A stretch of 9,199 nt of DNA from a virus (Duplodnaviria; Heunggongvirae; Uroviricota; Caudoviricetes), in IMG/VR virus record IMGVR_UViG_2602041549_000006, positions 1 through 9,199 of that record. One strand, given 5' to 3'. Shown here one piece after another: positions 1-9,199 of this stretch (its first letter is position 1; each line of letters opens with the position of its first letter). The translations under genes were made by a program, and so were the position numbers. The notes beneath the pieces were generated by a model. It did not search any database. It was not told the DNA's origin and saw only the letters and a program-made list of their open reading frames with translations.

Positions 1-107
1 GATTCAGGGGGCCAGTCTAGAACATGATTCGCTTATCCCAGTAGTCATTACACAGGCGATACTCTTCCGTTTTCTCACCTGACTTCATCTGGTCGAAATA
101 TTCACCG

Positions 108-410
108 TTAACTGCCAGTTGAAGGTTGGCCACGACCTTCCTCCTTTGGCTTGTGAATTTGTATCGTCATGCCGCTTTGAGTGGTGACTACAATGACAGA
201 ACCAGGCTGAAGGCTGTTAAGATTGAATGCTTCGTAAAACGAATCCAATGCCAGTGCTTTTTTATTCTTTCGGTTCCACCAACGCCATCCCTTGCTACAG
301 GCTACATCGACAATCCACTGTACACTCCTGTAAGCCATATAAAACCAGATGAGCAAAACCTGAAGGAATGCTATCCAGTCAATAATCGTATATTTCGCGA
401 AGGAGTCCAT
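108..410 (-). CDS. Small hypothetical protein (about 100 aa) with one strongly hydrophobic N-terminal segment (IIDWIAFLQVLLIWFYMAY); probable small membrane protein
   Basis: ORF 108..413 in the track begins with GTG at 413; the ATG at 410-408 is preceded by a strong SD (AGGAGGTGA) and overlaps the upstream stop as TGATG. No recognisable domain. Confidence 0.45.
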   Translation of the reverse strand: MDSFAKYTIIDWIAFLQVLLIWFYMAYRSVQWIVDVACSKGWRWWNRKNKKALALDSFYEAFNLNSLQPGSVIVVTTQSGMTIQIHKPKEEGRGQPSTGS

Positions 411-919
411 CACTTCACCTCCTGCTGCGGTGCTGCTGGCATTTCACGCCAGTGCGTAACTGAGTGCGGATCCGGATATTCGGTGCCATCATCCCAGCGA
501 TTGCCATTCCACATTGCAGACCACATCTCACCGTCTTCATACATGACCATTACCGGAATTAACTTATCCGGCATTCGCTCACTACAGCTTATCCAACCAT
601 CCGGAGTTGCCGGAGAATTGCCATTTACCAAGTCAGCTCGAACATATAGCGTGTCATCATGGTGCTGATTGTGGCTGCACCACGTTAATTCGCTTAACTC
701 GCCATCTTCTGGCCATACTCCAGCCGTTTGCAGCCAGATATGGGCTGGCGCATCTTGGCAAGGTGTATTAACTGGCAACTTGTAAGTTTGGCTTACAGGT
801 TCTGCTCCCAGTGATGCCAGTGCAATCCGTGCCACTTCCATTTGTTCGCCACGGGTAAGCCCGTTATCAAGCGGATTTTTAATGGATAATTCAATACGTT
901 CTTTGGTAATAGTGGTCAT
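410..919 (-). CDS. Phage accessory protein, DUF551-like C-terminal region (169 aa)
   Basis: ATG at 919-917 with AAGGA upstream. The C-terminal stretch GWISCSERMPD...THWREMPAAP resembles the DUF551 pattern common in enterobacterial prophage early-left regions (recalled from memory). Stop overlaps the next start. Confidence 0.55.
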   Translation of the reverse strand: MTTITKERIELSIKNPLDNGLTRGEQMEVARIALASLGAEPVSQTYKLPVNTPCQDAPAHIWLQTAGVWPEDGELSELTWCSHNQHHDDTLYVRADLVNGNSPATPDGWISCSERMPDKLIPVMVMYEDGEMWSAMWNGNRWDDGTEYPDPHSVTHWREMPAAPQQEVK

Positions 920-1431
920 GCCGCGTTTCCTTCTTTCTTATTAACAATTACACCGTCATATATTTCATTAAGGTGCCCTCTCAACTCCATACGCCTTAAT
1001 GCAAATAACATGTAATCGCATTCAACCTGCTTATTTCCAGTAAATGGCTTATCGTCAGGATTACCCCAACAGCAATTACCCTTGGGCCACCCATGTACTT
1101 TCCGTACTCTTCCGTTAACAACGTGAAGTAATCCCCAGCCGGGAGGTAAATCCTCAACTGAAATAATTCCCGGCTCACTAATAAAGAATCGCCAGTCGCC
1201 CATTCCAAGAGATGGATTTTTACGAAAACGCTTTTTTCTATCTGCCAACAAGTCAGCACGAGAACACTTCGCCTCTATCAGGCATGATGCTGAATTTCTG
1301 AATCCCATAGCATCTGGCTGTTCTCCGGTACTGGTTACAGCTATAAAGCGGTCATGAAAACAAACCTTGAACCCATTGCGCTTAAGGAACTTATACGCAA
1401 TCTGACAGAGTTCGCGGTGTGTTAACGCCAT
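916..1431 (-). CDS. Hypothetical protein (171 aa) with a PD-x12-ExK arrangement (PDAMGF ... LIEAK); possible PD-(D/E)XK-fold nuclease
   Basis: Track ORF 916..1767 overlaps the upstream gene; the internal ATG at 1431-1429 has an AAGGAG SD and sits 1 nt after the upstream TGA stop. The motif was read directly from the translation; the fold assignment is inference. Confidence 0.5.
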   Translation of the reverse strand: MALTHRELCQIAYKFLKRNGFKVCFHDRFIAVTSTGEQPDAMGFRNSASCLIEAKCSRADLLADRKKRFRKNPSLGMGDWRFFISEPGIISVEDLPPGWGLLHVVNGRVRKVHGWPKGNCCWGNPDDKPFTGNKQVECDYMLFALRRMELRGHLNEIYDGVIVNKKEGNAA

Positions 1432-1432
1432 A

Positions 1433-2053
1433 TCACTCTCCTTTGATGCGAATGCCAGCTGCGCTTGCTGATTCTTCATATGCGCGTTTAGCAGCGTTAA
1501 GGATTGCTGCCAGTGGCGTATAGCCGCCATCCATTCGGATTGTGTTGTGGATGCCAGCCATTGTGTCGCGCAATTTGCTGTGGCTAGCAGACAGTTCTGC
1601 AATGCGCTTCTCTGCGGCTTCCAGCTTCTCGCGCATATCGTCAACGTACTCGACCAGAGATCCGCCAGCAGGAATTTCGCATTCCTCGACCAGTTGGAAG
1701 TAGATATCAGCTGCGGCCCGTGTGTTGCTATGCCTAGCGTCGCCCATCTCACCTTCACGAAGAGCATCGCGTTCGGCGGTAAGATTGGCTATTTTGCTGT
1801 CTTTGCCTTCCAGCTCAACGCGCAGCCTCCCTACCGTTAGCGCAATATCCTCGTTCTCCTGATCGCGGCTTTTGATGTATTGCAGGTTTCTTTCCCGTTC
1901 ATCCAACAATGCCAGCGCGATATCTGGCGAAAAGTGCTTCATAAAATCGTTAAGCGCATTAATTCGCTGATCGAAAGGCATTACAGGTGCTTCACCAGCA
2001 ATTTTTGTTTTTTCAGCGATTTCACGAAGCTTTTGATAATCAATCTTGCTCAT
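1433..2053 (-). CDS. Ead/Ea22-like phage protein (206 aa) with a coiled-coil segment
   Basis: The N-terminus MSKIDYQKLREIAEK matches the typical start of Ead/Ea22-like prophage proteins (recalled). AAGGAG SD present; ATGA overlap with the upstream gene's stop. Confidence 0.6.
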   Translation of the reverse strand: MSKIDYQKLREIAEKTKIAGEAPVMPFDQRINALNDFMKHFSPDIALALLDERERNLQYIKSRDQENEDIALTVGRLRVELEGKDSKIANLTAERDALREGEMGDARHSNTRAAADIYFQLVEECEIPAGGSLVEYVDDMREKLEAAEKRIAELSASHSKLRDTMAGIHNTIRMDGGYTPLAAILNAAKRAYEESASAAGIRIKGE

Positions 2054-2889
2054 TGGATGACTCCTTTACGAAGCTGTTCGGCGATATCTTCGAGAACGCC
2101 ATCAGAGAATGAACGGTCAAAATCGCCTTCCGGCGCATTAGCCATAAACTCAGTAGAGGTAAGAATCATCCGGGCAATATCCGCGGCGTTCTTCGCAGTA
2201 TCATCAATAAAACCAGCTTCCCAGGCAGCCAGCATTCTGTTCGCCACAAAGTAAGCGCCCTCCTTGCGTGCTTCAGTCTTCACTTCAGCCAGGAAAGCAT
2301 CGGTGGCTGGGGTGTCTGATTGCAGAGACTTTGCGCGATAGTCATTCCACCCTCTTGCATACATGGGATTAACTTGCACTCCATCTTTTACGCAATATGC
2401 CTGCCCTCCACGGTTGATAACCTTGATTTCGTCCATAGCGCCAGACTTCATCCCCGCATTCTCCGCTGCCAGCTCCGCGCACTTGGCCTCAAGAGCGGCA
2501 ACCACTTCCTGATGGTCTTTGTACTTAACGTATGAGCCGGAGATGTCATCACCTTCGGTGTTTAGCCATGCGTCATTGCAATTCACTGCGTAGGTTCTGA
2601 TGCTCTCCCGCCTATGACAGACGCCAGGCCAGTCAATAAAGTATCCGCATTCCTTCTCAGATTGCTTAAGCGATGTATTTTCAGCAGCCATCTTCGCGCA
2701 TTTAGCCTCAAGGTTATCAATCGTGATTCCAGCAGAACGACACTCCCGCAACGCCGTTTCCAGTTTTGATTCAAGTTCACCGAACTTACGGACAAGATAT
2801 TCAGCGTTTGTTTCGTTAACCTTTAAATCACTTGGGATGCATTTACCTTTCAGAAAACCATCCATCTCAATTAGTGACATTTGTTTCAT
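2050..2889 (-). CDS. Coiled-coil phage protein with an internal tandem duplication (Ea22-like region); start ambiguous
   Basis: Long minus-strand ORF. The track start at 2907 is GTG with no SD; the ATG at 2889 has GGAG upstream, so either could be real. The motif LEAKCAxxAAEN occurs twice in the protein and is visible as a DNA repeat (2476-2495 versus 2697-2715). Confidence 0.5.
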   Translation of the reverse strand: MKQMSLIEMDGFLKGKCIPSDLKVNETNAEYLVRKFGELESKLETALRECRSAGITIDNLEAKCAKMAAENTSLKQSEKECGYFIDWPGVCHRRESIRTYAVNCNDAWLNTEGDDISGSYVKYKDHQEVVAALEAKCAELAAENAGMKSGAMDEIKVINRGGQAYCVKDGVQVNPMYARGWNDYRAKSLQSDTPATDAFLAEVKTEARKEGAYFVANRMLAAWEAGFIDDTAKNAADIARMILTSTEFMANAPEGDFDRSFSDGVLEDIAEQLRKGVIQ

Positions 2890-2983
2890 TTCTTCCCACT
2901 CCGCCACATCGCATTCAGATATTTGTTGTCATTAACAGAACCGAAACTCTTTCTCTTAAGCAAGTCCTCTCATGGTAAATTCC

Positions 2984-3277
2984 TCAGTCATTACTGATAG
3001 CGCCATAACGTGAGCGGTAATTACGCAGGCGCGGGTCAATTTCAGGGAAGTGGGTATATGTGGCTTTGCGGAATGGTCGGATTGATGTCTGGTAAATTCG
3101 CTCGCGTTCTTCTTTCTCTGCAAGCCATATACAATGGCGAAATTCCTTTTCCTCTTTCGTTTCCTGCGGTATCGACATTATCAGGTTGTAGTTTTTCCTG
3201 AATTTATCCAGCACCTCCGATACGGAATTGCCGGAACATCGGCGCGCGTCATCCGCACCATACAGAGGCGCTGGCAT
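2984..3277 (-). CDS. Hypothetical small phage protein (97 aa)
   Basis: ATG at 3277-3275 preceded by an AGGAG SD; same orientation and tight spacing with neighbouring genes. No recognisable domain. Confidence 0.5.
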   Translation of the reverse strand: MPAPLYGADDARRCSGNSVSEVLDKFRKNYNLIMSIPQETKEEKEFRHCIWLAEKEERERIYQTSIRPFRKATYTHFPEIDPRLRNYRSRYGAISND

Positions 3278-3293
3278 GGTTTTCTCCTGTTGA

Positions 3294-3842
3294 TTATTTA
3301 GCTAACTTTTTCCAGATCGCTGAAACGTATTTGGCTTGGTGAATGGCATCATCAAGCGCGTTGTGGCGAGTTCCTTTGAATGGCATATCTCGCTTAGGGT
3401 CGAATCCTATTACCTTCCCAAGTTCGACGATTGTTCTTACGTCGCGGTCATTCCACCACTGCCACGGAACTGGCTGCCCTGTCAGCGAATAACTGTTTCG
3501 GAGAATAACGCAGTCAAATGATGCTCCATTCCCCCAAACCTGAACGAATTTGTGGTTAGCGTTCTTTATGATGAATTCAGATAACCATGAAAGAGCCGTT
3601 GAAAGCTCCTGAGTGTTGCTGGTTAGCGATTTTCTGGCTTCTTCACTCTGTTCCAGCCACCATAAAATCGTTGAAGCGTCAGGACGCGCTCGATATCGCA
3701 TTGATGACTCAAGCGAGATATTTACCGAGAACTCTTCTCCTGTTTCTCCGGTATTCGGGTCAAAGAATACCGCCCCAATAGAAATAACTGGCGCGTATGG
3801 CCCGTTGCCCATTGTTTCAAGGTCAACCATCAAGTGATTCAT
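3294..3842 (-). CDS. 3'-5' exonuclease, DEDD(h)/DnaQ-like fold (182 aa)
   Basis: N-terminal MVDLETMG (Exo I motif, D-x-E) and C-terminal HNALDDA (Exo III motif, H-x4-D) read from the translation. AAGGA SD upstream of the ATG at 3842. Confidence 0.7.
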   Translation of the reverse strand: MNHLMVDLETMGNGPYAPVISIGAVFFDPNTGETGEEFSVNISLESSMRYRARPDASTILWWLEQSEEARKSLTSNTQELSTALSWLSEFIIKNANHKFVQVWGNGASFDCVILRNSYSLTGQPVPWQWWNDRDVRTIVELGKVIGFDPKRDMPFKGTRHNALDDAIHQAKYVSAIWKKLAK

Positions 3843-3850
3843 GTAAGTCC

Positions 3851-4330
3851 TTAAATTGCGTGAATAGCGTGACGAGGGAAGGGGAGAGTTACTGGCTCCT
3901 CGTCTGGGTAGATAGGTTTGTTATGTTTGTGCCACTCGACATGACATGACTTGCAGAGCCACATCACATCGGTTGGTTTGCTGTAGTCGCAGTGGTGCGC
4001 CTGTGGTTTACATTCTGATCCGCAGCACTCACATTGTGGTGGTCGGATTAGCTTACCGTCGCGCAAAAAATTACCCACAATGATGTGGGCTTTTCTTTTC
4101 CATGGGTTGCTCTGAATGAACCGCTTTTTGGCTGCGTTACACCGTTCTCTTCCGCGTTCCGATGATTGATATTCTCTCCTTGCTGATACTCGATGTGGCA
4201 ATCCAGCGCGTTCTTTGTCGTATTCAGCCAGGCAAGCCCGGCAAGCGGCAGTTAATCCATCTCTGGATGCTCTTCTGATTTGAAAGTCCCTTTCTTCCTT
4301 ATGTTGATGGCATCTTGAGCAGATTTTCAT
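3851..4330 (-). CDS. HNH endonuclease (159 aa), zinc-binding, free-standing
   Basis: C-terminal QCECCG ... AHHCDYSKP ... WLCKSCHVEWH gives the HNH catalytic His pair plus Cys4-type metal ligands; additional CxxC pairs at the N-terminus. AGGAG SD upstream. Confidence 0.7.
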   Translation of the reverse strand: MKICSRCHQHKEERDFQIRRASRDGLTAACRACLAEYDKERAGLPHRVSARREYQSSERGRERCNAAKKRFIQSNPWKRKAHIIVGNFLRDGKLIRPPQCECCGSECKPQAHHCDYSKPTDVMWLCKSCHVEWHKHNKPIYPDEEPVTLPFPRHAIHAI

Positions 4331-4339
4331 ATTCAGCTC

Positions 4340-4813
4340 CTAGAACGGAATATCCGAATCGTCGAAGTTCATAGGTGGTTCGCTGTGATTCCCATGCTGC
4401 TGAGATTGCTGTCTTTGTTGCTGGCCGTTATTTCGCTGAGGTGAAGACTGTTCATTGCCTCCTTGCTTGCCACCAAGCATTTGCATGGTTCCACCAACGC
4501 CTACGATAACTTCGGTAGTGAACCGATCCTGTCCACTTTGATCCTGCCATTTTCTTGTCCGCAATTTGCCTTCAAGATAAACCTCTGAGCCTTTCCGCAG
4601 ATACTCGCTGGCAATTTCTGCCAGTTTCCCGCTCATTACCACACGGTGCCACTCCGTCTGCTCCTTTTGCTCTCCAGTTTGCTTATCACGCCATTGTTCT
4701 GACGTAGCAACTGTAAGGTTTGCAAATGCCGTTCCTGATGGTGAATATCTGATTTCTGGATCATGCCCAAGGCGACCAATAATGATCACCTTATTTACGC
4801 CTCTGCTTGCCAT
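4340..4813 (-). CDS. ssb: Single-stranded DNA-binding protein SSB (157 aa)
   Basis: OB-fold N-terminus ([17 protein letters not shown]...), Gly/Gln-rich linker and the canonical acidic tail DDSDIPF. Confidence 0.9.
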
Positions 4814-5521
4814 TTATGCCGCCTGTTTTAGCTCGTTAACTCTGATGTTCATTACCTGAACGCATTTAGCCTGCGCATCCTCATTGCCAGCCATTAATTG
4901 CCAGTCACGCTGATAACGCTCTATGAGTTTTTTCTTGTCAGTTTCTGTTGATGCATAATCGCTGAAGTCTTTCAGGATTTGTTCGCAGTCAACCGATGGA
5001 GATTTCTGGTTGGTATTTTCTGGTGATGGTTTGTTATCTGATGCTGGGATTGCCCATCCCGGCAGCGATGGAGGGAGCCAGTAAAATCCTGTTCCATCCT
5101 TCAGTTTTGCCCTGTGCCACCCCTGCTTTTTATCGAGAGATGTTTGTGCGAAACCTTCCTCAAGGTTATACAGATACCGACCGATTCCCCATTGAACGGC
5201 AGCACGCTTCATTGCACCGGAACGACCACCTTTGACGGCTTCTACCTGCGTGTTTTCAGCAGCATCCCATTTGGTTACCCATTCGGAATCAATCTTGATT
5301 GATATGCCGCATTCAACTCCGCCGTTGTTGGGAATATCGCGGTATTCATTGCGCCATCCTGCTTTGCCGCAAACATCGTCCAGGCGTTTCATGATTGCCC
5401 GGTTCGTGACATAAGCCAGCACCATAGCCCACACCTTGCCATCGCGTGTTTTACCGCTTTGCTGTATTCGCCATTCGATATCTTCAGGGCTGAATGGCTC
5501 ATCGAATTTGTTCAAATCCAT
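4814..5521 (-). CDS. Single-strand annealing recombinase, Rad52/Sak-like family (235 aa); functional analogue of lambda Bet / P22 Erf
   Basis: Motifs GWRNEY, GGVECGISI and AVQWGIGRYLY fit Rad52-family annealing proteins (recalled). Sits immediately upstream of ssb, with a GAGGTGA SD. Confidence 0.65.
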   Translation of the reverse strand: MDLNKFDEPFSPEDIEWRIQQSGKTRDGKVWAMVLAYVTNRAIMKRLDDVCGKAGWRNEYRDIPNNGGVECGISIKIDSEWVTKWDAAENTQVEAVKGGRSGAMKRAAVQWGIGRYLYNLEEGFAQTSLDKKQGWHRAKLKDGTGFYWLPPSLPGWAIPASDNKPSPENTNQKSPSVDCEQILKDFSDYASTETDKKKLIERYQRDWQLMAGNEDAQAKCVQVMNIRVNELKQAA

Positions 5522-5620
5522 AATTCACCTCAGAATGGACACGGCCCAAGAAAATAACGCTGATTTAATACTTCGACTCGGGACAAATTAAGGCATACCC
5601 GCATTCCTTCGCGGTCACCA

Positions 5621-5779
5621 TTATGGCGATACCAGAGAGCTTTCTGCGTGTACATGCGTCTCTGTAACTTGCTCTCCTTCACTGTGGTTGCAAGTGACAT
5701 GAATATCTCCTTCGTTACCGATTAATTCTTTCATCTGACGAATGAATTCTTCGTCTGACCATTTATCTGTAAAACTCAT
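5621..5779 (-). CDS. Small protein (52 aa) in the kil position, downstream of and translationally coupled to cIII; function unknown
   Basis: ATG at 5779-5777 overlaps the cIII stop as ATGA. Assignment is by position only; the longer track ORF 5621..5809 would overlap cIII by 34 nt. Confidence 0.35.
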   Translation of the reverse strand: MSFTDKWSDEEFIRQMKELIGNEGDIHVTCNHSEGEQVTETHVHAESSLVSP

Positions 5780-5946
5780 GGACGGCCTTGTTGTTTCAAA
5801 ATATCCCAAAGCTTTTCGAGCAAACTTTTCATTCTTGGTTGTTTAAAGTCTGCTCCGGTTAAAATGTTTTTTCGTGAATGCTGTACCGATAAAATCGGGT
5901 TGAAAGGGCGAACCGATGCCGCCCCTGCAATAGCGAACTGTTGCAT
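5776..5946 (-). CDS. cIII: CIII-like protein (56 aa); regulator that protects CII from FtsH
   Basis: Internal ATG at 5946-5944 with an AAGGAG SD. The protein MQQFAIAGAAS...LLEKLWDILKQQGRP resembles lambda CIII (MQYAIAGW...LIDILNQPGVP) in start, length and C-terminus. The longer track ORF would read through the terminator hairpin. Confidence 0.65.
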   Translation of the reverse strand: MQQFAIAGAASVRPFNPILSVQHSRKNILTGADFKQPRMKSLLEKLWDILKQQGRP

Positions 5947-6011
5947 AGGATGCTCCTTCTGTTTGATTGCATAACGAAAACGCCTCGAGTGAAGCGTTAT
6001 TGGTATGCATA

Positions 6012-6036
6012 TAAAAAAGCCCTCACACTGGAGGGC
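6012..6036 (-). terminator. Intrinsic terminator on the minus strand (tL1-like), downstream of the N plus orf156 unit
   Basis: The minus strand reads GCCCTC-cagtgt-GAGGGC followed by TTTTTTAT: a 6-bp GC stem, 6-nt loop and T6 tract. There is no T-tract on the plus-strand side. Confidence 0.6.
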
Positions 6037-6098
6037 AAAGAAGATTTCCAATAATCAGAACAAGTCGGCTCCTGTTTAGTTACGAGCGACATTGCTCC

Positions 6099-6126
6099 GT
6101 GTATTCACTCGTTGGAATGAATACAC
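6099..6126. repeat. Perfect 9-bp inverted repeat (GTGTATTCA-N10-TGAATACAC) just 3' of orf156
   Basis: Read directly from the sequence; no adjacent U-tract, so not a classical terminator. Confidence 0.5.
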
Positions 6127-6140
6127 AGTGCTTATTCGTA

Positions 6141-6611
6141 CTAATAAAACACCCAGTTTTCTGTTTCTTGGTTGTGTCCAAAGTTATATTCAATACCTGG
6201 TGTTGATGTATCAATATTCTTCATCCCATCAACAAGAGTTGATACAACAGCCAAATCTTGTTTGATTCTCATCAAATGGTATTTCTTCCGGCGCAATAAA
6301 CTTTCAATGGCAAGTTTCTTCGTCGGGAATGCAAAAGATCTTTCTGCATTTTTTGCTACTTTCTTAATTGCATATCTATTTCTCCTTTGTTTCCATTCCT
6401 GTAACCACTGATTTGGTGCTGGTTTAAAATTAACAATCCAATGCGCAGGAACCAACCATGCATAATGCTCTGTCTGATGAAAAGCTATATATTGAAGTGC
6501 GAATATTTTGATTCCATCTTCTTCAACTGTCGCTTGGAATCTCCAGAAAACAGGCATTCCATCATGTTCAGTTTCTGATTCAGGAAAAGGTACGCTCCAT
6601 GATTTTGTCAT
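6141..6611 (-). CDS. Hypothetical protein (156 aa), AT-rich moron in the ral/sieB position directly after N; function unknown
   Basis: ATG at 6611-6609 with SD GAGGTGA overlapping the N stop codon. The segment is visibly AT-rich compared with its flanks. No recognisable domain, no transmembrane segment. Confidence 0.6.
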   Translation of the reverse strand: MTKSWSVPFPESETEHDGMPVFWRFQATVEEDGIKIFALQYIAFHQTEHYAWLVPAHWIVNFKPAPNQWLQEWKQRRNRYAIKKVAKNAERSFAFPTKKLAIESLLRRKKYHLMRIKQDLAVVSTLVDGMKNIDTSTPGIEYNFGHNQETENWVFY

Positions 6612-6619
6612 ATATCACC

Positions 6620-6955
6620 TCAAATAAGTGGTTTGCTGCCTAATTTCATTTTCTGGCGACCAACACAAGTCACACCCATTTCACTGCGTGGCTTGCGGTA
6701 GTAAATACGATTCTGTTTACTCTCGACTTCATCTGCCTTCTTGCAGCGAAGGATTCCGAGTGATATTGCTTTTTCAGAAAGGCTTAAACGCTTTCTTGGG
6801 GCTTCCTGAACAGGTTCCTCACTGTCTGTGCCGAAGATAGAATCAATGATGTTGCAGATGGCATCACGCTCGATAGCCAGCTTTCTGCGCCGCTCATGAC
6901 GGCGAGTTTTGGCATTTCCTGCAAATGTTGATTTCCCGTACACGATTACCGTCAT
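6620..6955 (-). CDS. N: Antitermination protein N (112 aa) with a P22-type arginine-rich motif and a lambda-like C-terminus
   Basis: The N-terminus MTVIVYGKSTFAGNAKTRRHERRRKLAIER matches the P22 N ARM peptide (recalled); the C-terminus YYRKPRSEMGVTCVGRQKMKLGSKPLI parallels the lambda N C-terminus (WYSKPGERGITCSGRQKIKGKSIPLI). ATG at 6955 with AGGA upstream; the track ORF extends to 7039. Confidence 0.85.
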   Translation of the reverse strand: MTVIVYGKSTFAGNAKTRRHERRRKLAIERDAICNIIDSIFGTDSEEPVQEAPRKRLSLSEKAISLGILRCKKADEVESKQNRIYYRKPRSEMGVTCVGRQKMKLGSKPLI

Positions 6956-7074
6956 GATGTTTTCCTCATGTGAAATGGCTTTGGTGGTGATGCGCCAGAT
7001 GCTGATCTTCTGGTTGCTGTCGTTGCAGCTGCAATTCACATCACCGCCAAATCCATCTCGTTTGGTATCTGTTT

Positions 7075-7109
7075 GCGCTTTGTCAGCGCCCCATCGAAGT
7101 TAAAGAGCA
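7075..7109 (-). promoter_or_regulatory. nutL: boxA (TGCTCTTTA) and boxB hairpin (GCGCTGACAAAGCGC)
   Basis: On the minus strand: boxA-like TGCTCTTTA, a 12-nt spacer, then a 4-bp GCGC stem closing a loop that contains GACAA. This matches my recollection of P22 nutL boxB. It lies between the predicted PL and N. Confidence 0.7.
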
Positions 7110-7154
7110 TGCCAATCTGTTCCGTTTGGCTTCCAGCTTCCTGCTGATGGCTAA

Positions 7155-7183
7155 ATAGTACGATGTGTACTTTATTGAGTCAA
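7155..7183 (-). promoter_or_regulatory. PL candidate: -35 TTGACT (7178-7183), 17-bp spacer, -10 TACTAT (7155-7160), overlapped by operator-like palindromes
   Basis: Hexamers read on the minus strand. The 13-bp perfect palindrome TATTGAGTCAATA (7173-7185) overlaps the -35 and AGTAC-N5-GTACT (7157-7171) overlaps the -10/spacer. Confidence 0.5.
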
Positions 7184-7242
7184 TACAAAATGTTCTAAAT
7201 ATAATTAGTTTTTTATAACGCTTTGTATTTAATAGGTTTATA

Positions 7243-7278
7243 TTTTGGAAAAAGAAAACCCGACGCTAAGGTCGGGTT
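7243..7278 (-). terminator. Intrinsic terminator downstream of cI (weaker on the plus strand)
   Basis: 8-bp stem AACCCGAC/GTCGGGTT with a 6-nt loop; on the minus strand it is followed by TTCTTTTTCC, on the plus strand by ATTGTTGTGTATTTT. Confidence 0.6.
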
Positions 7279-7308
7279 ATTGTTGTGTATTTTAGAGTTG
7301 TGAGGCTG

Positions 7309-7968
7309 TTAACTAAATGTCTCTTCAGGCCACTGGCTGGCGATAACTTTCCCTACTACGGAACAGCTATCATTGCATGGAATCATTGGATATTGCGGGT
7401 TTAGTGGCTGTAGGAACACCTGACCGCTATCCCTGATCAGTTTCTTGAAGGTAAACTCATCACCTCCAAGTCTGGCTATGCAAAAATCACCGGGCTCAAT
7501 AGCCTGCTCAGGGTCAACAAGAATTAACATCCCGTCAGGAAAGCTTGGCTTGGATCCTGTTGGCGCGGTCATGGAATTACCTTCAACCTCAAGCCAGAAT
7601 GCAGAATCACTGGCTTTTTTGGTTGTGCTTACCCATCTCTCCGCATCACCTTTGGTAAAGGTTCTAAGCTCAGGCGAGAACATCCCGGCCTGAACATGAG
7701 AAAAAACAGGGTACTCATATTGTTTTTTAACGGGGGCAGATGAGTATTCGCCAACAGGTGAAAATGTACCGTCGTGGTTGAATGAGACGTTATCAATACC
7801 AAGGTATTTAAACACCACACCAATCTCGTCAAGAGATGGATGACGAGATCCGCGCAACCAGTGACCAATTCCACCCTGCGTCATACCAAGCTCTTCAGCT
7901 AACTTCTCTTGAGTTATGCCGAGTTCTTTCATTCTGGATCTAGCCAGTTCATACCATTTCATTTTCAT
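7309..7968 (-). CDS. cI: CI-type prophage repressor (219 aa): non-lambda N-terminal HTH domain fused to a lambda-cI-like LexA/S24 C-terminal domain
   Basis: The C-terminal about 130 aa ([19 protein letters not shown] ... [12 protein letters not shown]) is near-identical to lambda cI as I recall it, including the Ala-Gly cleavage site and the Ser and Lys of the catalytic dyad; the N-terminal about 85 aa is different. ATG at 7968-7966 with an AAGGA SD; the track ORF extends to 8043. Confidence 0.9.
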
Positions 7969-8024
7969 ATCCTTATTATTACGCTCTGTACTAAAACCAT
8001 CCATGCACAAGATGTATTTTTTGT

Positions 8025-8053
8025 TTGCATTCCAAAAGTACATATCGTATTAT
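8025..8053 (+). promoter_or_regulatory. PR candidate: -35 TTGCAT (8025-8030), 17 bp, -10 TATTAT (8048-8053), inside the OR region 7969-8079
   Basis: Best sigma70-like match on the plus strand upstream of cro; SD GGAGGG at 8071-8076. Operator half-sites could not be defined confidently; AGTACATATCGTATT (8036-8050) and ATTACGCTCTGTACT (7979-7993) resemble the OL element. Confidence 0.4.
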
Positions 8054-8079
8054 TGTTTCATGATTACTATGGAGGGCAT

Positions 8080-8295
8080 ATGAGCAACCTACGAAAATAT
8101 CGAGAGTCACTGAATATCTCTCAAACAACACTTGCTAAGGCGGTTGGATGCACACAGGGAGCTATCGGACATTGGGAATCTGGTCGTCGCTTCCCAGACC
8201 TTAAAACATGCCGTGCTCTTGTTGCGTGCCTAAACAAGTTAGGCGCAAAAGTCAGTCTTGATGACGTGTTCCCACCGGAACACAAAGCCGCTTAA
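8080..8295 (+). CDS. cro: Cro-like HTH repressor (71 aa)
   Basis: Divergent from cI across a 111-bp operator region; ATG at 8080 with a GGAGGG SD; HTH segment QTTLAKAVGCTQGAIGHWESG. The track ORF 7909..8295 is an upstream extension without an SD. Confidence 0.8.
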   Translation: MSNLRKYRESLNISQTTLAKAVGCTQGAIGHWESGRRFPDLKTCRALVACLNKLGAKVSLDDVFPPEHKAA

Positions 8296-8305
8296 TAAGC
8301 GGATC

Positions 8306-8340
8306 CGCTCTTTATCAATCTGCACCGCCGACAACGCGGT
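8306..8340 (+). promoter_or_regulatory. nutR: boxA (CGCTCTTTA, 8306-8314) and boxB hairpin (ACCGC-cGACAAc-GCGGT, 8324-8340)
   Basis: Consensus boxA followed 9 nt later by a 5-bp stem whose loop contains GACAA, the same loop core as the nutL boxB, as expected for a P22-type N. Confidence 0.7.
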
Positions 8341-8352
8341 AACTAATTAAGC

Positions 8353-8385
8353 ACTCATCGAAAGATGAGTATTAGTGATTATTTA
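8353..8385 (+). terminator. tR1-position hairpin (ACTCATC-GAAA-GATGAGT) followed by a weakly T-rich tract
   Basis: 7-bp stem with a GAAA tetraloop between nutR and cII; the downstream tract ATTAGTGATTATTTA is only moderately U-rich, so this may be a weak or N-suppressible terminator. Confidence 0.35.
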
Positions 8386-8394
8386 CCTATGGAA

Positions 8395-8437
8395 ATAGTA
8401 AGAAATGGAACAAACAAGTTACAGCAAACTATCACAG
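8395..8437 (-). promoter_or_regulatory. PRE-like CII-dependent promoter: TTGC-N6-TTGT box (8424-8437) and -10 TACTAT (8395-8400)
   Basis: On the minus strand TTGCtgtaacTTGT lies at codons 7-11 of cII, analogous to the lambda TTGC-N6-TTGC site in early cII codons; a 17-bp spacer then TACTAT. Confidence 0.4.
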
Positions 8438-8701
8438 CGCGATGTTGATCGCGCAGAAACAGATTTACTTATCAACCTGTCAACGCTTACACAGCGCGGT
8501 CTGGCAAAGATGATTGGCTGTCATGAATCGAAGATAAGCAGAACGGACTGGAGATTTATTGCTTCGGTCTTGTGTGCTTTCGGAATGGCATCAGACATCA
8601 GTCCGATTAGCAGGGCTTTTAAGTATGCGCTTGATGGACTCACCAATAAAAAACGCCCGGCGGCAACCGAGCGTTCTTATCAAATACAAATGGAATTTTA
8701 A
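8405..8701 (+). CDS. cII: CII transcriptional activator (98 aa)
   Basis: The C-terminus LTNKKRPAATERSYQIQMEF is nearly identical to lambda CII (ILTNKKRPAATERSEQIQMEF, recalled); length and position after cro and nutR fit. Confidence 0.9.
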   Translation: MEQTSYSKLSQRDVDRAETDLLINLSTLTQRGLAKMIGCHESKISRTDWRFIASVLCAFGMASDISPISRAFKYALDGLTNKKRPAATERSYQIQMEF

Positions 8702-8712
8702 CAACATCCAGC
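8646..8712 (-). ncRNA. OOP-like antisense RNA overlapping the 3' end of cII (terminator 8645-8673, putative -10 TATAAT at 8719-8724)
   Basis: On the minus strand: stem CGCUCGG/CCGGGCG (one G-U pair), loop UUGCCG, then UUUUUUAUU; matches my recollection of the lambda oop terminator. A TATAAT hexamer lies about 70 nt upstream on the minus strand. The 5' end is inferred. Confidence 0.5.
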
Positions 8713-8723
8713 GAGGTAATTAT

Positions 8724-8867
8724 ATGCGAAAAACGCAGGAAAATAAACGCGTTAATCACCGAAAAGATGTGCTACGTGACCAGTTTTATCAGGGGGTTAA
8801 TCCAGCAATAGCTGTGCCACTGAGAGAAATACTTAACAGGTACAAAACTTCGGAGAAGTCAAAATGA
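8724..8867 (+). CDS. Small hypothetical basic protein (47 aa) between cII and the replication gene
   Basis: ATG at 8724 with a GAGGT SD; stop overlaps the next start as ATGA. The track ORF 8559..8867 extends upstream into cII in another frame. Confidence 0.4.
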   Translation: MRKTQENKRVNHRKDVLRDQFYQGVNPAIAVPLREILNRYKTSEKSK

Positions 8868-9199
8868 GCATGAATCTTATGGCTAAGGCCATGAATATAA
8901 AGGTTGGCAACCCACTGAGAAAACTGGTTCTGATTAAACTTGCCGATAACGCCAATGATAATGGCGAATGCTGGCCTTCATATCAACATGTCGCTGACCA
9001 GTGTGAGGTGAGCAGATCGACAGTAAAAAGTCACATTAGGGCACTGGAAGAGATGGGGCTTTTGAAAAGGGAATTCAGAAGAAAAGGAGAGCTTAACCAG
9101 TCAAACGTTTTTTATCTGACGCTGGATAATGCACAACAAATCCAACCAGAATCAGGTGGGGCAGGAGCTGCCCGGGGTGGGGCAGGAGCTGCCCGGGGT
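8864..9199 (+). CDS. Replication initiator, O-like, with N-terminal winged-HTH (5' partial, runs off the window end)
   Basis: Open frame from the ATG at 8864 to the window end (112 codons, no stop). The translation MSMNLMAKAMNIKVGNPLRKLVLIKLADNANDNGECWPSYQHVADQCEVSRSTVKSHIRALEEMGLLKR is HTH-like and the gene is in the O position; iteron-like repeats lie inside it. Confidence 0.65.
   Translation, partial: MSMNLMAKAMNIKVGNPLRKLVLIKLADNANDNGECWPSYQHVADQCEVSRSTVKSHIRALEEMGLLKREFRRKGELNQSNVFYLTLDNAQQIQPESGGAGAARGGAGAARG
9155..9199 (+). repeat. Iteron-like direct repeats (putative ori): 21-bp unit GGTGGGGCAGGAGCTGCCCGG, two exact copies plus the start of a third at the window edge
   Basis: Exact tandem copies at 9155-9175 and 9176-9196; each unit contains the dyad GGGCAG-gag-CTGCCC. 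In frame they encode a Gly/Ala-rich linker (GGAGAARG repeated). Confidence 0.6.

Follow-up and report, generated by a model that had tools for sequence, protein, structure and literature searches.

Among the lysogeny control regions described in lambdoid phages, that of lambda is one of the closest to the present locus. CII acts there at three experimentally known sites (pI, PRE and paQ; PMC4651098), all of which fit the pattern of two TTGC-type tetramers six nucleotides apart and all of which read TTGC/TTGC. For phage epsilon34 the form TTGCN6TTGC/T has been used (PMC2629481), a single-base change in the CII repeats has been noted in phi24B (PMC4651098), and the GenBank record of 434 gives ttgynnnnnnttgy as the consensus of the CII site, together with annotations of pRE, CII sites and an oop ncRNA. 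The second element is the antisense RNA oop, which in lambda (38675-38599) is 77 nt long and is no longer expressed when its -10 is replaced (PMC3349717, PMC5869508), and 45 nt of sequence upstream of lambda oop are insufficient for full function of its promoter pO (PMC5869508). Hayes et al described a 33-bp box, covering pO and the 5' part of oop, that is conserved in 23 lambdoid phages (PMC3349717). In lambda, the pO-oop region carries a LexA box, and an RNase III cut has been mapped 12 nt past cII (PMC5869508). RNA-seq has revealed an OOP-like RNA at the corresponding position of the P22-like prophage BTP1 (PMC7067206); OOP-like sequences have been described in Stx phages, and OOP is listed for lambda and Stx phages in reviews (PMC5488031, PMC12197685). 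Sequence records also hold such modules: HK629 is annotated with a 'putative lambda cII binding site' at cII nucleotides +10 to +23 and with a feature 'similar to lambda oop RNA', and HK75 with a feature 'similar to HK022 pE'.

In the present study, a stretch of 9,199 nucleotides of viral DNA (Caudoviricetes; positions 1 to 9,199 of IMG/VR record IMGVR_UViG_2602041549_000006), hereafter called the window, was compared with these systems. An immunity and replication region of the lambdoid type occupies the right third of the window, with a cI-like repressor gene, cro, a putative nutR, cII, a small ORF and an O-like gene. As judged from these genes and elements, the window very probably carries an ordinary lambdoid lysis/lysogeny decision module (CII/PRE/oop) of a phage or prophage from E. 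coli or a close relative. The PRE/oop module around cII is an already known one, that is, textbook lambda-like lysogeny control. Its sequence elements lie at positions homologous to those of lambda, they are conserved among related phages, and the terminator covaries. The features considered here are the following.

7309-7968, minus strand: cI-like repressor gene (Pfam Peptidase_S24, 9.6e-29; HTH_3, 8.3e-11), the presumed target of PRE transcription.
8080-8295, plus strand: cro-like gene (HTH_3, E=4.2e-12), which a PRE transcript would cross in antisense.
8395-8400, minus strand: PRE -10, TACTAT, aligned with AAGTAT of lambda.
8405-8701, plus strand: cII, 98 aa, the HK022/HK97/Stx-phage allele, from the ORF list (Pfam Phage_CII, E=3.8e-34, 117 bits).
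8414-8427, minus strand: putative CII-binding direct repeat TTGC-TGTAAC-TTGT (TTGCTGTAACTTGT), assigned by homology; the only match in the window.
8645-8653, minus strand: U-tract of the terminator tO, UUUUUUAUU.
8647-8712, minus strand: predicted oop-like antisense RNA, about 65-66 nt long, its ends being placed by reference to lambda oop.
8654-8673, minus strand: tO hairpin with an 8-bp stem and a 4-nt loop (fold -12.6 kcal/mol), 100% identical to lambda and supported by covariation.
8719-8724, minus strand: putative pO -10, TATAAT, aligned with CATAAT of lambda (38688-38683) with a 2-nt shift.
8724-8867, plus strand: 47-aa ORF located after cII and before the O-like gene, with an ATG (8724-8726) that overlaps the putative pO -10.
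8742-8747, minus strand: weak candidate pO -35, TTTATT, matching the consensus at 3 of 6 positions with a 17-nt spacer, below the criteria of the promoter scanner.
From 8864, plus strand: O-like replication gene, from the ORF list.

Parts of the region 7300-9199 are matched in 2016 of 5426 complete E. coli genomes, four of which contain at least 80% of the region; in the best three it is present in full with 98.1-98.3% identity. Compared with phage records, the window is mosaic over its whole length, and no record reaches 80% coverage. The segment with the cII/oop module (8380-8870) is 96-98% identical in phi24B, Min27 and the Stx2a phages, and to the left of 8380 the immunity region of the window (cI, cro) is unlike theirs. 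Mosaic junctions near 8380 and 8731 flank the module: in one set of Stx2a phages the match begins at 8380, just left of the PRE -10, and runs rightward, and a second set of phages matches 8305-8731, ending right at the pO -10 and the start of the 47-aa ORF. Both regulatory ends of the cII-oop module therefore coincide with recombination joints.

On its sequence, the gene at 8405-8701 is a genuine cII. Its product also matched the lambda CII structures 1xwr, 1zpq and 8igr (E=4.5e-9; HMMER aligned residues 13-98 only), and it is 99% identical to CII of Stx2a phages, 96% to that of phi24B, 94% to HK629 and 85% to HK75. In comparison with lambda, the N-terminal four-fifths of the protein, the HTH included, belong to a different allele, whereas the C-terminal tail is of the identical type, and the last 20 codons and residues are nearly the same as in lambda cII. 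An activator of the CII family is thus encoded beside PRE, as it is at the lambda promoter.

The putative CII box consists of a distal TTGC (8427-8424) and a proximal TTGT (8417-8414). The first-pass annotation had recognised a TTGC-N6-TTGT on the minus strand correctly but had set it at 8424-8437, which is 10 nt away from its real position and holds just the distal TTGC and ten unrelated bases. The TACTAT that it had named as the -10 downstream of the box was found at 8400-8395, 13 nt from the proximal repeat, which is the spacing of lambda PRE. By alignment with lambda, the leftward start is predicted at about 8388 (A). The -35 would be formed by the central six bases of the box, TGTAAC, which agree with the consensus at 2 of 6 positions, and PRE was not called by a sigma-70 consensus scan of the window, as is expected for an activator-dependent promoter. 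A promoter that lies antisense within the first cII codons, points toward cro and cI, has a poor -35 and carries its -10 at the lambda spacing is of the PRE type, and by analogy with lambda it would be activated by CII.

The window box fits the TTGY consensus of lambdoid phages and departs from the strict TTGC/TTGC of lambda, whose box at the same cII nucleotides (+10 to +23) reads TTGCGTTTGTTTGC in the alignment with lambda 38289-38759. In the reading frame of cII, the proximal tetramer falls on codon 4: Thr4 (ACA) in the window gives TTGT, and Ala4 (GCA) in HK629 and HK75 gives TTGC. It had been proposed that the degenerate TTGT may alter CII dependence. We consider this weak, since TTGT is present in all 79 IMG/VR loci whose CII is at least 95% identical, in phi24B (whose box is TTGCTGTAACTTGT, as in the window), in g341c and in the literature, and hence is normal for this allele; Shigella 75/02 has it as well. 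Scans for TTGCN6TTGY and TTGYN6TTGY gave no further CII box of the pI or paQ kind in the window, which contains neither int nor Q. A pattern scan of the first 30 kb of phi24B, Q included, returned only PRE and one plus-strand match in cro. This second TTGY-N6-TTGY within cro, at 11766-11779 of phi24B and at 171-184 of the 434 record, is absent from the window; the 434 record labels it as a CII binding site, and we regard it in both phages as probably a chance match.

At the other end of cII, the first-pass annotation had placed a minus-strand terminator at 8645-8673, within the 3' coding region. The hairpin and its U6 (8653-8648) were confirmed and are identical to tO of lambda. The stem pairs 8673-8666 with 8661-8654 around the loop UGCC (8665-8662), and a block of 39 nt across it (8640-8678) is 100% identical to lambda in the alignment described above. 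On the plus strand the U-tract encodes the conserved Asn-Lys-Lys of CII. A simple terminator scanner did not flag tO in the window, which we attribute to the upstream A-tract, since this can pair with the T-run and does so in the MFE structure. An inverted-repeat search with 6-nt seeds also found nothing at tO, because the stem contains G-U pairs.

Hairpin and T6 are kept in all nine alleles compared, with energies from -11.7 to -13.5 kcal/mol (ViennaRNA), and the residues encoded by tO differ between them (KKRPAATERS, KKSPAATEDF, KKRPVGAGRS, KKAPAVTEAD). In a MAFFT alignment of nine sequences, a small sample with one misaligned row (Meifeng), 93% of the cells were paired, as against at most 45% in slid controls. 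Compensatory double changes were seen in 4 of the 8 pairs, and a covariation score as high as that observed was reached in none of 500 shuffles. In this alignment the 5' arm of Meifeng is shifted by three columns, so that its 'unpaired' cells are an alignment artefact; folded alone, the same sequence forms a hairpin of -13.5 kcal/mol. In HK75, Shigella 75/02, phiEt88 and Meifeng, such compensatory substitutions preserve the hairpin although the CII residues change. The direction of this result is clear although the sample is small. It indicates that the tO structure itself is under selection, which would imply that leftward transcripts terminate there.

The spacer separating cII from the replication gene contains the putative pO, with a consensus -10 and a weak -35 (TTTATT), because of which no promoter was called here by the sigma-70 scan. 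The earlier reading had put a TATAAT about 70 nt upstream of the terminator, which agrees well with the hexamer at 8724-8719, 45 nt from the stem and about 71-77 nt from the end of the T-run. Its estimate of a roughly 70-nt antisense RNA is also close enough to the length of about 65-66 nt predicted from the lambda alignment. The 3' end would fall at 8647 and the 5' end, inferred from the position of the -10, at 8711 or 8712, so that the RNA would overlap the last 55 nt of cII (8647-8701), the same overlap as in lambda. As a whole, the proposed correspondence with the PRE and oop arrangement of lambda was supported by the alignment, in which box, PRE -10 and tO correspond base for base and the putative pO -10 is aligned. 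The 5' part differs. Of the 33-bp pO/oop-5' box with its LexA site (ACTGGATCaATCcACAGGAGTaATTATGaCAAA), only the promoter-proximal part is kept (ATCCAGCGAGGTAATTAT against ATCCACAGGAGTAATTAT), no CTG-N10-CAG LexA box was found near oop in the window, and the sequence upstream of oop is not that of lambda. The 5' part is of the lambda type, with LexA box, in 59 of the 79 loci, of the window type, lacking this box, in 18 and of a third type in two. A search of Rfam gave no match at gathering thresholds, and in E-value mode 8280-8800 produced only sub-threshold chance matches; Rfam appears to contain no oop family.

Two other explanations were weighed against the reading as a PRE/oop module. It could be argued that TTGC-N6-TTGT reflects no more than cII codons 4-8 or chance, and that the repressor is established from some other promoter. 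The counts speak for caution: TTGCN6TTGY was found once in the window against 1.6 expected and TTGYN6TTGY once against 2.7, and therefore the motif by itself carries no weight. In addition, one tetramer is off the strict TTGC of the three lambda sites, and the first 30 kb of phi24B have no other box save the plus-strand match in cro at 11766. What stands above chance is the position of the box, antisense at cII nucleotides +10 to +23. An antisense TTGC-N6-TTGY occupies exactly these nucleotides in all nine divergent phages compared (lambda, 434, HK629, HK75, Shigella 75/02, Hafnia Meifeng, Erwinia phiEt88, Salmonella g341c and HF4s), as it does in the window. The peptide encoded under it is ANKRN in lambda and TSYSK in the window, which are unrelated, and the constraint therefore acts on the DNA. 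Furthermore, the tetramers are invariant in all 79 related loci (73 with TTGCTGTAACTTGT, six with a spacer variant), whereas the flanks and the neighbouring -10 vary, the latter being TAAGAT in 41, TACTAT in 25, TAATAT in seven and other hexamers in the rest. The distance from box to -10-like hexamer equals that of lambda, and TTGY is the accepted consensus (434 record; PMC2629481). A coincidental box is hence scarcely credible to us.

The alternative for the other half of the module is that tO is a passive relic, with 8640-8678 kept for the C-terminus of CII (NKKRPAATERS) and travelling with cII, pO being dead and no oop-like RNA being made. Several features of the window could be read in this way, namely the poor -35 and the silence of the scanner at pO, the loss of most of the 33-bp box and of the lambda upstream sequence (PMC3349717, PMC5869508), and the mosaic junction at about 8731, right at pO. 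The TATAAT also overlaps the start codon of the 47-aa ORF and its ribosome-binding spacer, and this overlap alone could account for its conservation. Against a relic stand the compensatory substitutions, which keep the hairpin and T6 in alleles with other amino acids, and the behaviour of the -10. In eight of the nine phages, as in the window, a near-consensus hexamer (CATAAT or TATAAT) is found at a similar distance from tO (Shigella 75/02 has no clear hexamer), and the window-type -10 is retained in 18 loci that have two different downstream genes. We judge a dead pO to be improbable, though less so than a coincidental box, and we retain the reading of a complete PRE/oop module.

With this PRE/oop reading, the locus would work as follows. 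The start sites, the CII dependence, the activity of pO in the context of the window and the antisense effect are carried over here from lambda by homology. After infection, rightward transcription from pR would lead to expression of cro and cII. CII tetramers would bind TTGC-N6-TTGT (8427-8414), astride the poor -35 on the strand opposite cII codons 4-8, and would bring RNA polymerase to PRE (-10 at 8400-8395, start at about 8388). The resulting leftward transcript, antisense to cro, would express the cI-like repressor gene (7968-7309). A constitutive leftward pO (-10 at 8724-8719) would meanwhile produce the RNA of about 65-66 nt, which would stop at the intrinsic terminator in the 3' end of cII (8673-8654 plus U6). 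By pairing with the last 55 nt of the cII mRNA, this RNA should reduce CII through duplex-dependent mRNA decay, as in lambda, and the lowered CII synthesis would bias the phage to lysis.

Several further observations were made in the neighbourhood of the module. The cI-cro intergenic region (7969-8079) should carry OR, pRM and pR, and the scanner reported TTTGCA-18-TATTAT at 8024-8053 (plus strand), a plausible pR. A long ORF (7309-8043) reaches upstream of the likely cI start at about 7968. GNAKTRRHERRRKLAIERD, which we take to be the arginine-rich motif of a P22-type N antiterminator, occurs in the minus-strand ORF at 6620-7039. On the 3' side of cro, a boxA-like CGCTCTTTA (8306-8314, plus strand) and a boxB-like hairpin ACCGC-CGACAAC-GCGGT (8324-8340) would constitute nutR. 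Between nutR and cII, a perfect 7-bp hairpin, ACTCATC-GAAA-GATGAGT (8353-8370, plus strand), is followed by a moderately T-rich stretch and lies at the same position as the 'putative tR' terminator annotated in the g341c record. Within cII, the scanner flagged a terminator-like plus-strand hairpin at 8545-8570 (GGACTGGAGATTTATTGCTTCGGTCT then TGTGTGCTTT; an 8-nt loop and nine pairs, four of them G-C). Chance alone would give about 0.3-0.9 sites of this kind, and the hairpin is probably not functional.

The 47-aa ORF encodes a basic product beginning MRKTQENKRVNHRK, and its stop codon overlaps the start of the O-like gene (ATGA). It had no Pfam match, and a comparison with the HK97 gp53-type ORF, which has the same position in HK629, showed no similarity. 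phi24B contains the same sequence, without a gene annotation. Within the O-like gene, a 21-bp perfect tandem repeat (GGTGGGGCAGGAGCTGCCCGG; 9155-9199, plus strand, 2.1 copies) is cut by the end of the window and probably marks the beginning of the origin iterons.

Confirmation of the module matters little beyond correct annotation, for which exact coordinates of the CII box, the PRE -10, tO and pO are now given. Of mild use is the finding that a subset of phages that carry the window cII allele (Stx2 phages such as phi24B among them) has a short oop 5' region without a LexA box, which is worth recalling in studies of OOP regulation in Stx phages. This short variant (18 of the 79 related loci, plus phi24B and Min27) might represent a functionally distinct class of OOP, although we consider this rather unlikely. 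Lacking the LexA box, such a class would be free of SOS control, and it would be made constitutively from a consensus -10. Its short 5' end would be unable to direct the lambda-type RNase III cut beyond cII, and it would therefore follow a different decay or translation-coupled route. If this were true, Stx-type phages with the short variant could have a shifted lysis/lysogeny set-point.

Set beside the described systems, PRE of the window shares with lambda PRE (pE) the TTGC-type repeats 6 nt apart flanking a poor -35, their antisense location at cII +10 to +23, a -10 located 13 nt downstream, transcription toward cro and cI and a Phage_CII activator. It differs in the proximal tetramer (TTGT, not TTGC) and in the -10 (TACTAT against AAGTAT). 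With lambda OOP, the window has in common tO, the 39-nt block, the predicted 55-nt overlap with cII and a putative -10 in the cII-O spacer that overlaps the next start codon. Eight nucleotides are deleted directly behind the cII stop codon, which together with the 2-nt shift of the -10 would give an RNA of about 65-66 nt rather than the 77 nt of lambda. Its 5' part is 10 nt shorter and would extend past the cII stop by about 11 nt, compared with 22 nt in lambda; the RNase III cut of lambda, if transferred to the window, would fall at or beyond the predicted 5' end. Moreover, the LexA box is absent, the 33-bp box is partial, the -10 is the consensus TATAAT, and the -35 region is within another gene, namely the 47-aa ORF.

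The modules of HK022, HK97, HK629, HK75 and the Stx phages carry the same cII allele with 85-99% identity. Within this group, phi24B shares the short oop body, the putative pO and the 47-aa ORF of the window, and its terminator loop is 3 nt longer, whereas HK629 and HK75 have TTGC/TTGC boxes and a lambda-type oop 5' part with LexA box. In the group of P22 (C1/PRE) and the P22-like phages (g341c, epsilon34, the OOP of BTP1), g341c has TTGC-N6-TTGT at PRE as in the window, and the oop 5' part is likewise short and without LexA box. These phages also have a small ORF between the cII-like and replication genes, although the sequences of this ORF and of the pO -35 region are unrelated to those of the window and the C1/CII protein is only 38% identical to its CII. 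The short oop 5' part is the sole departure of the window from the textbook locus, and it is also present in sequenced Stx phages.
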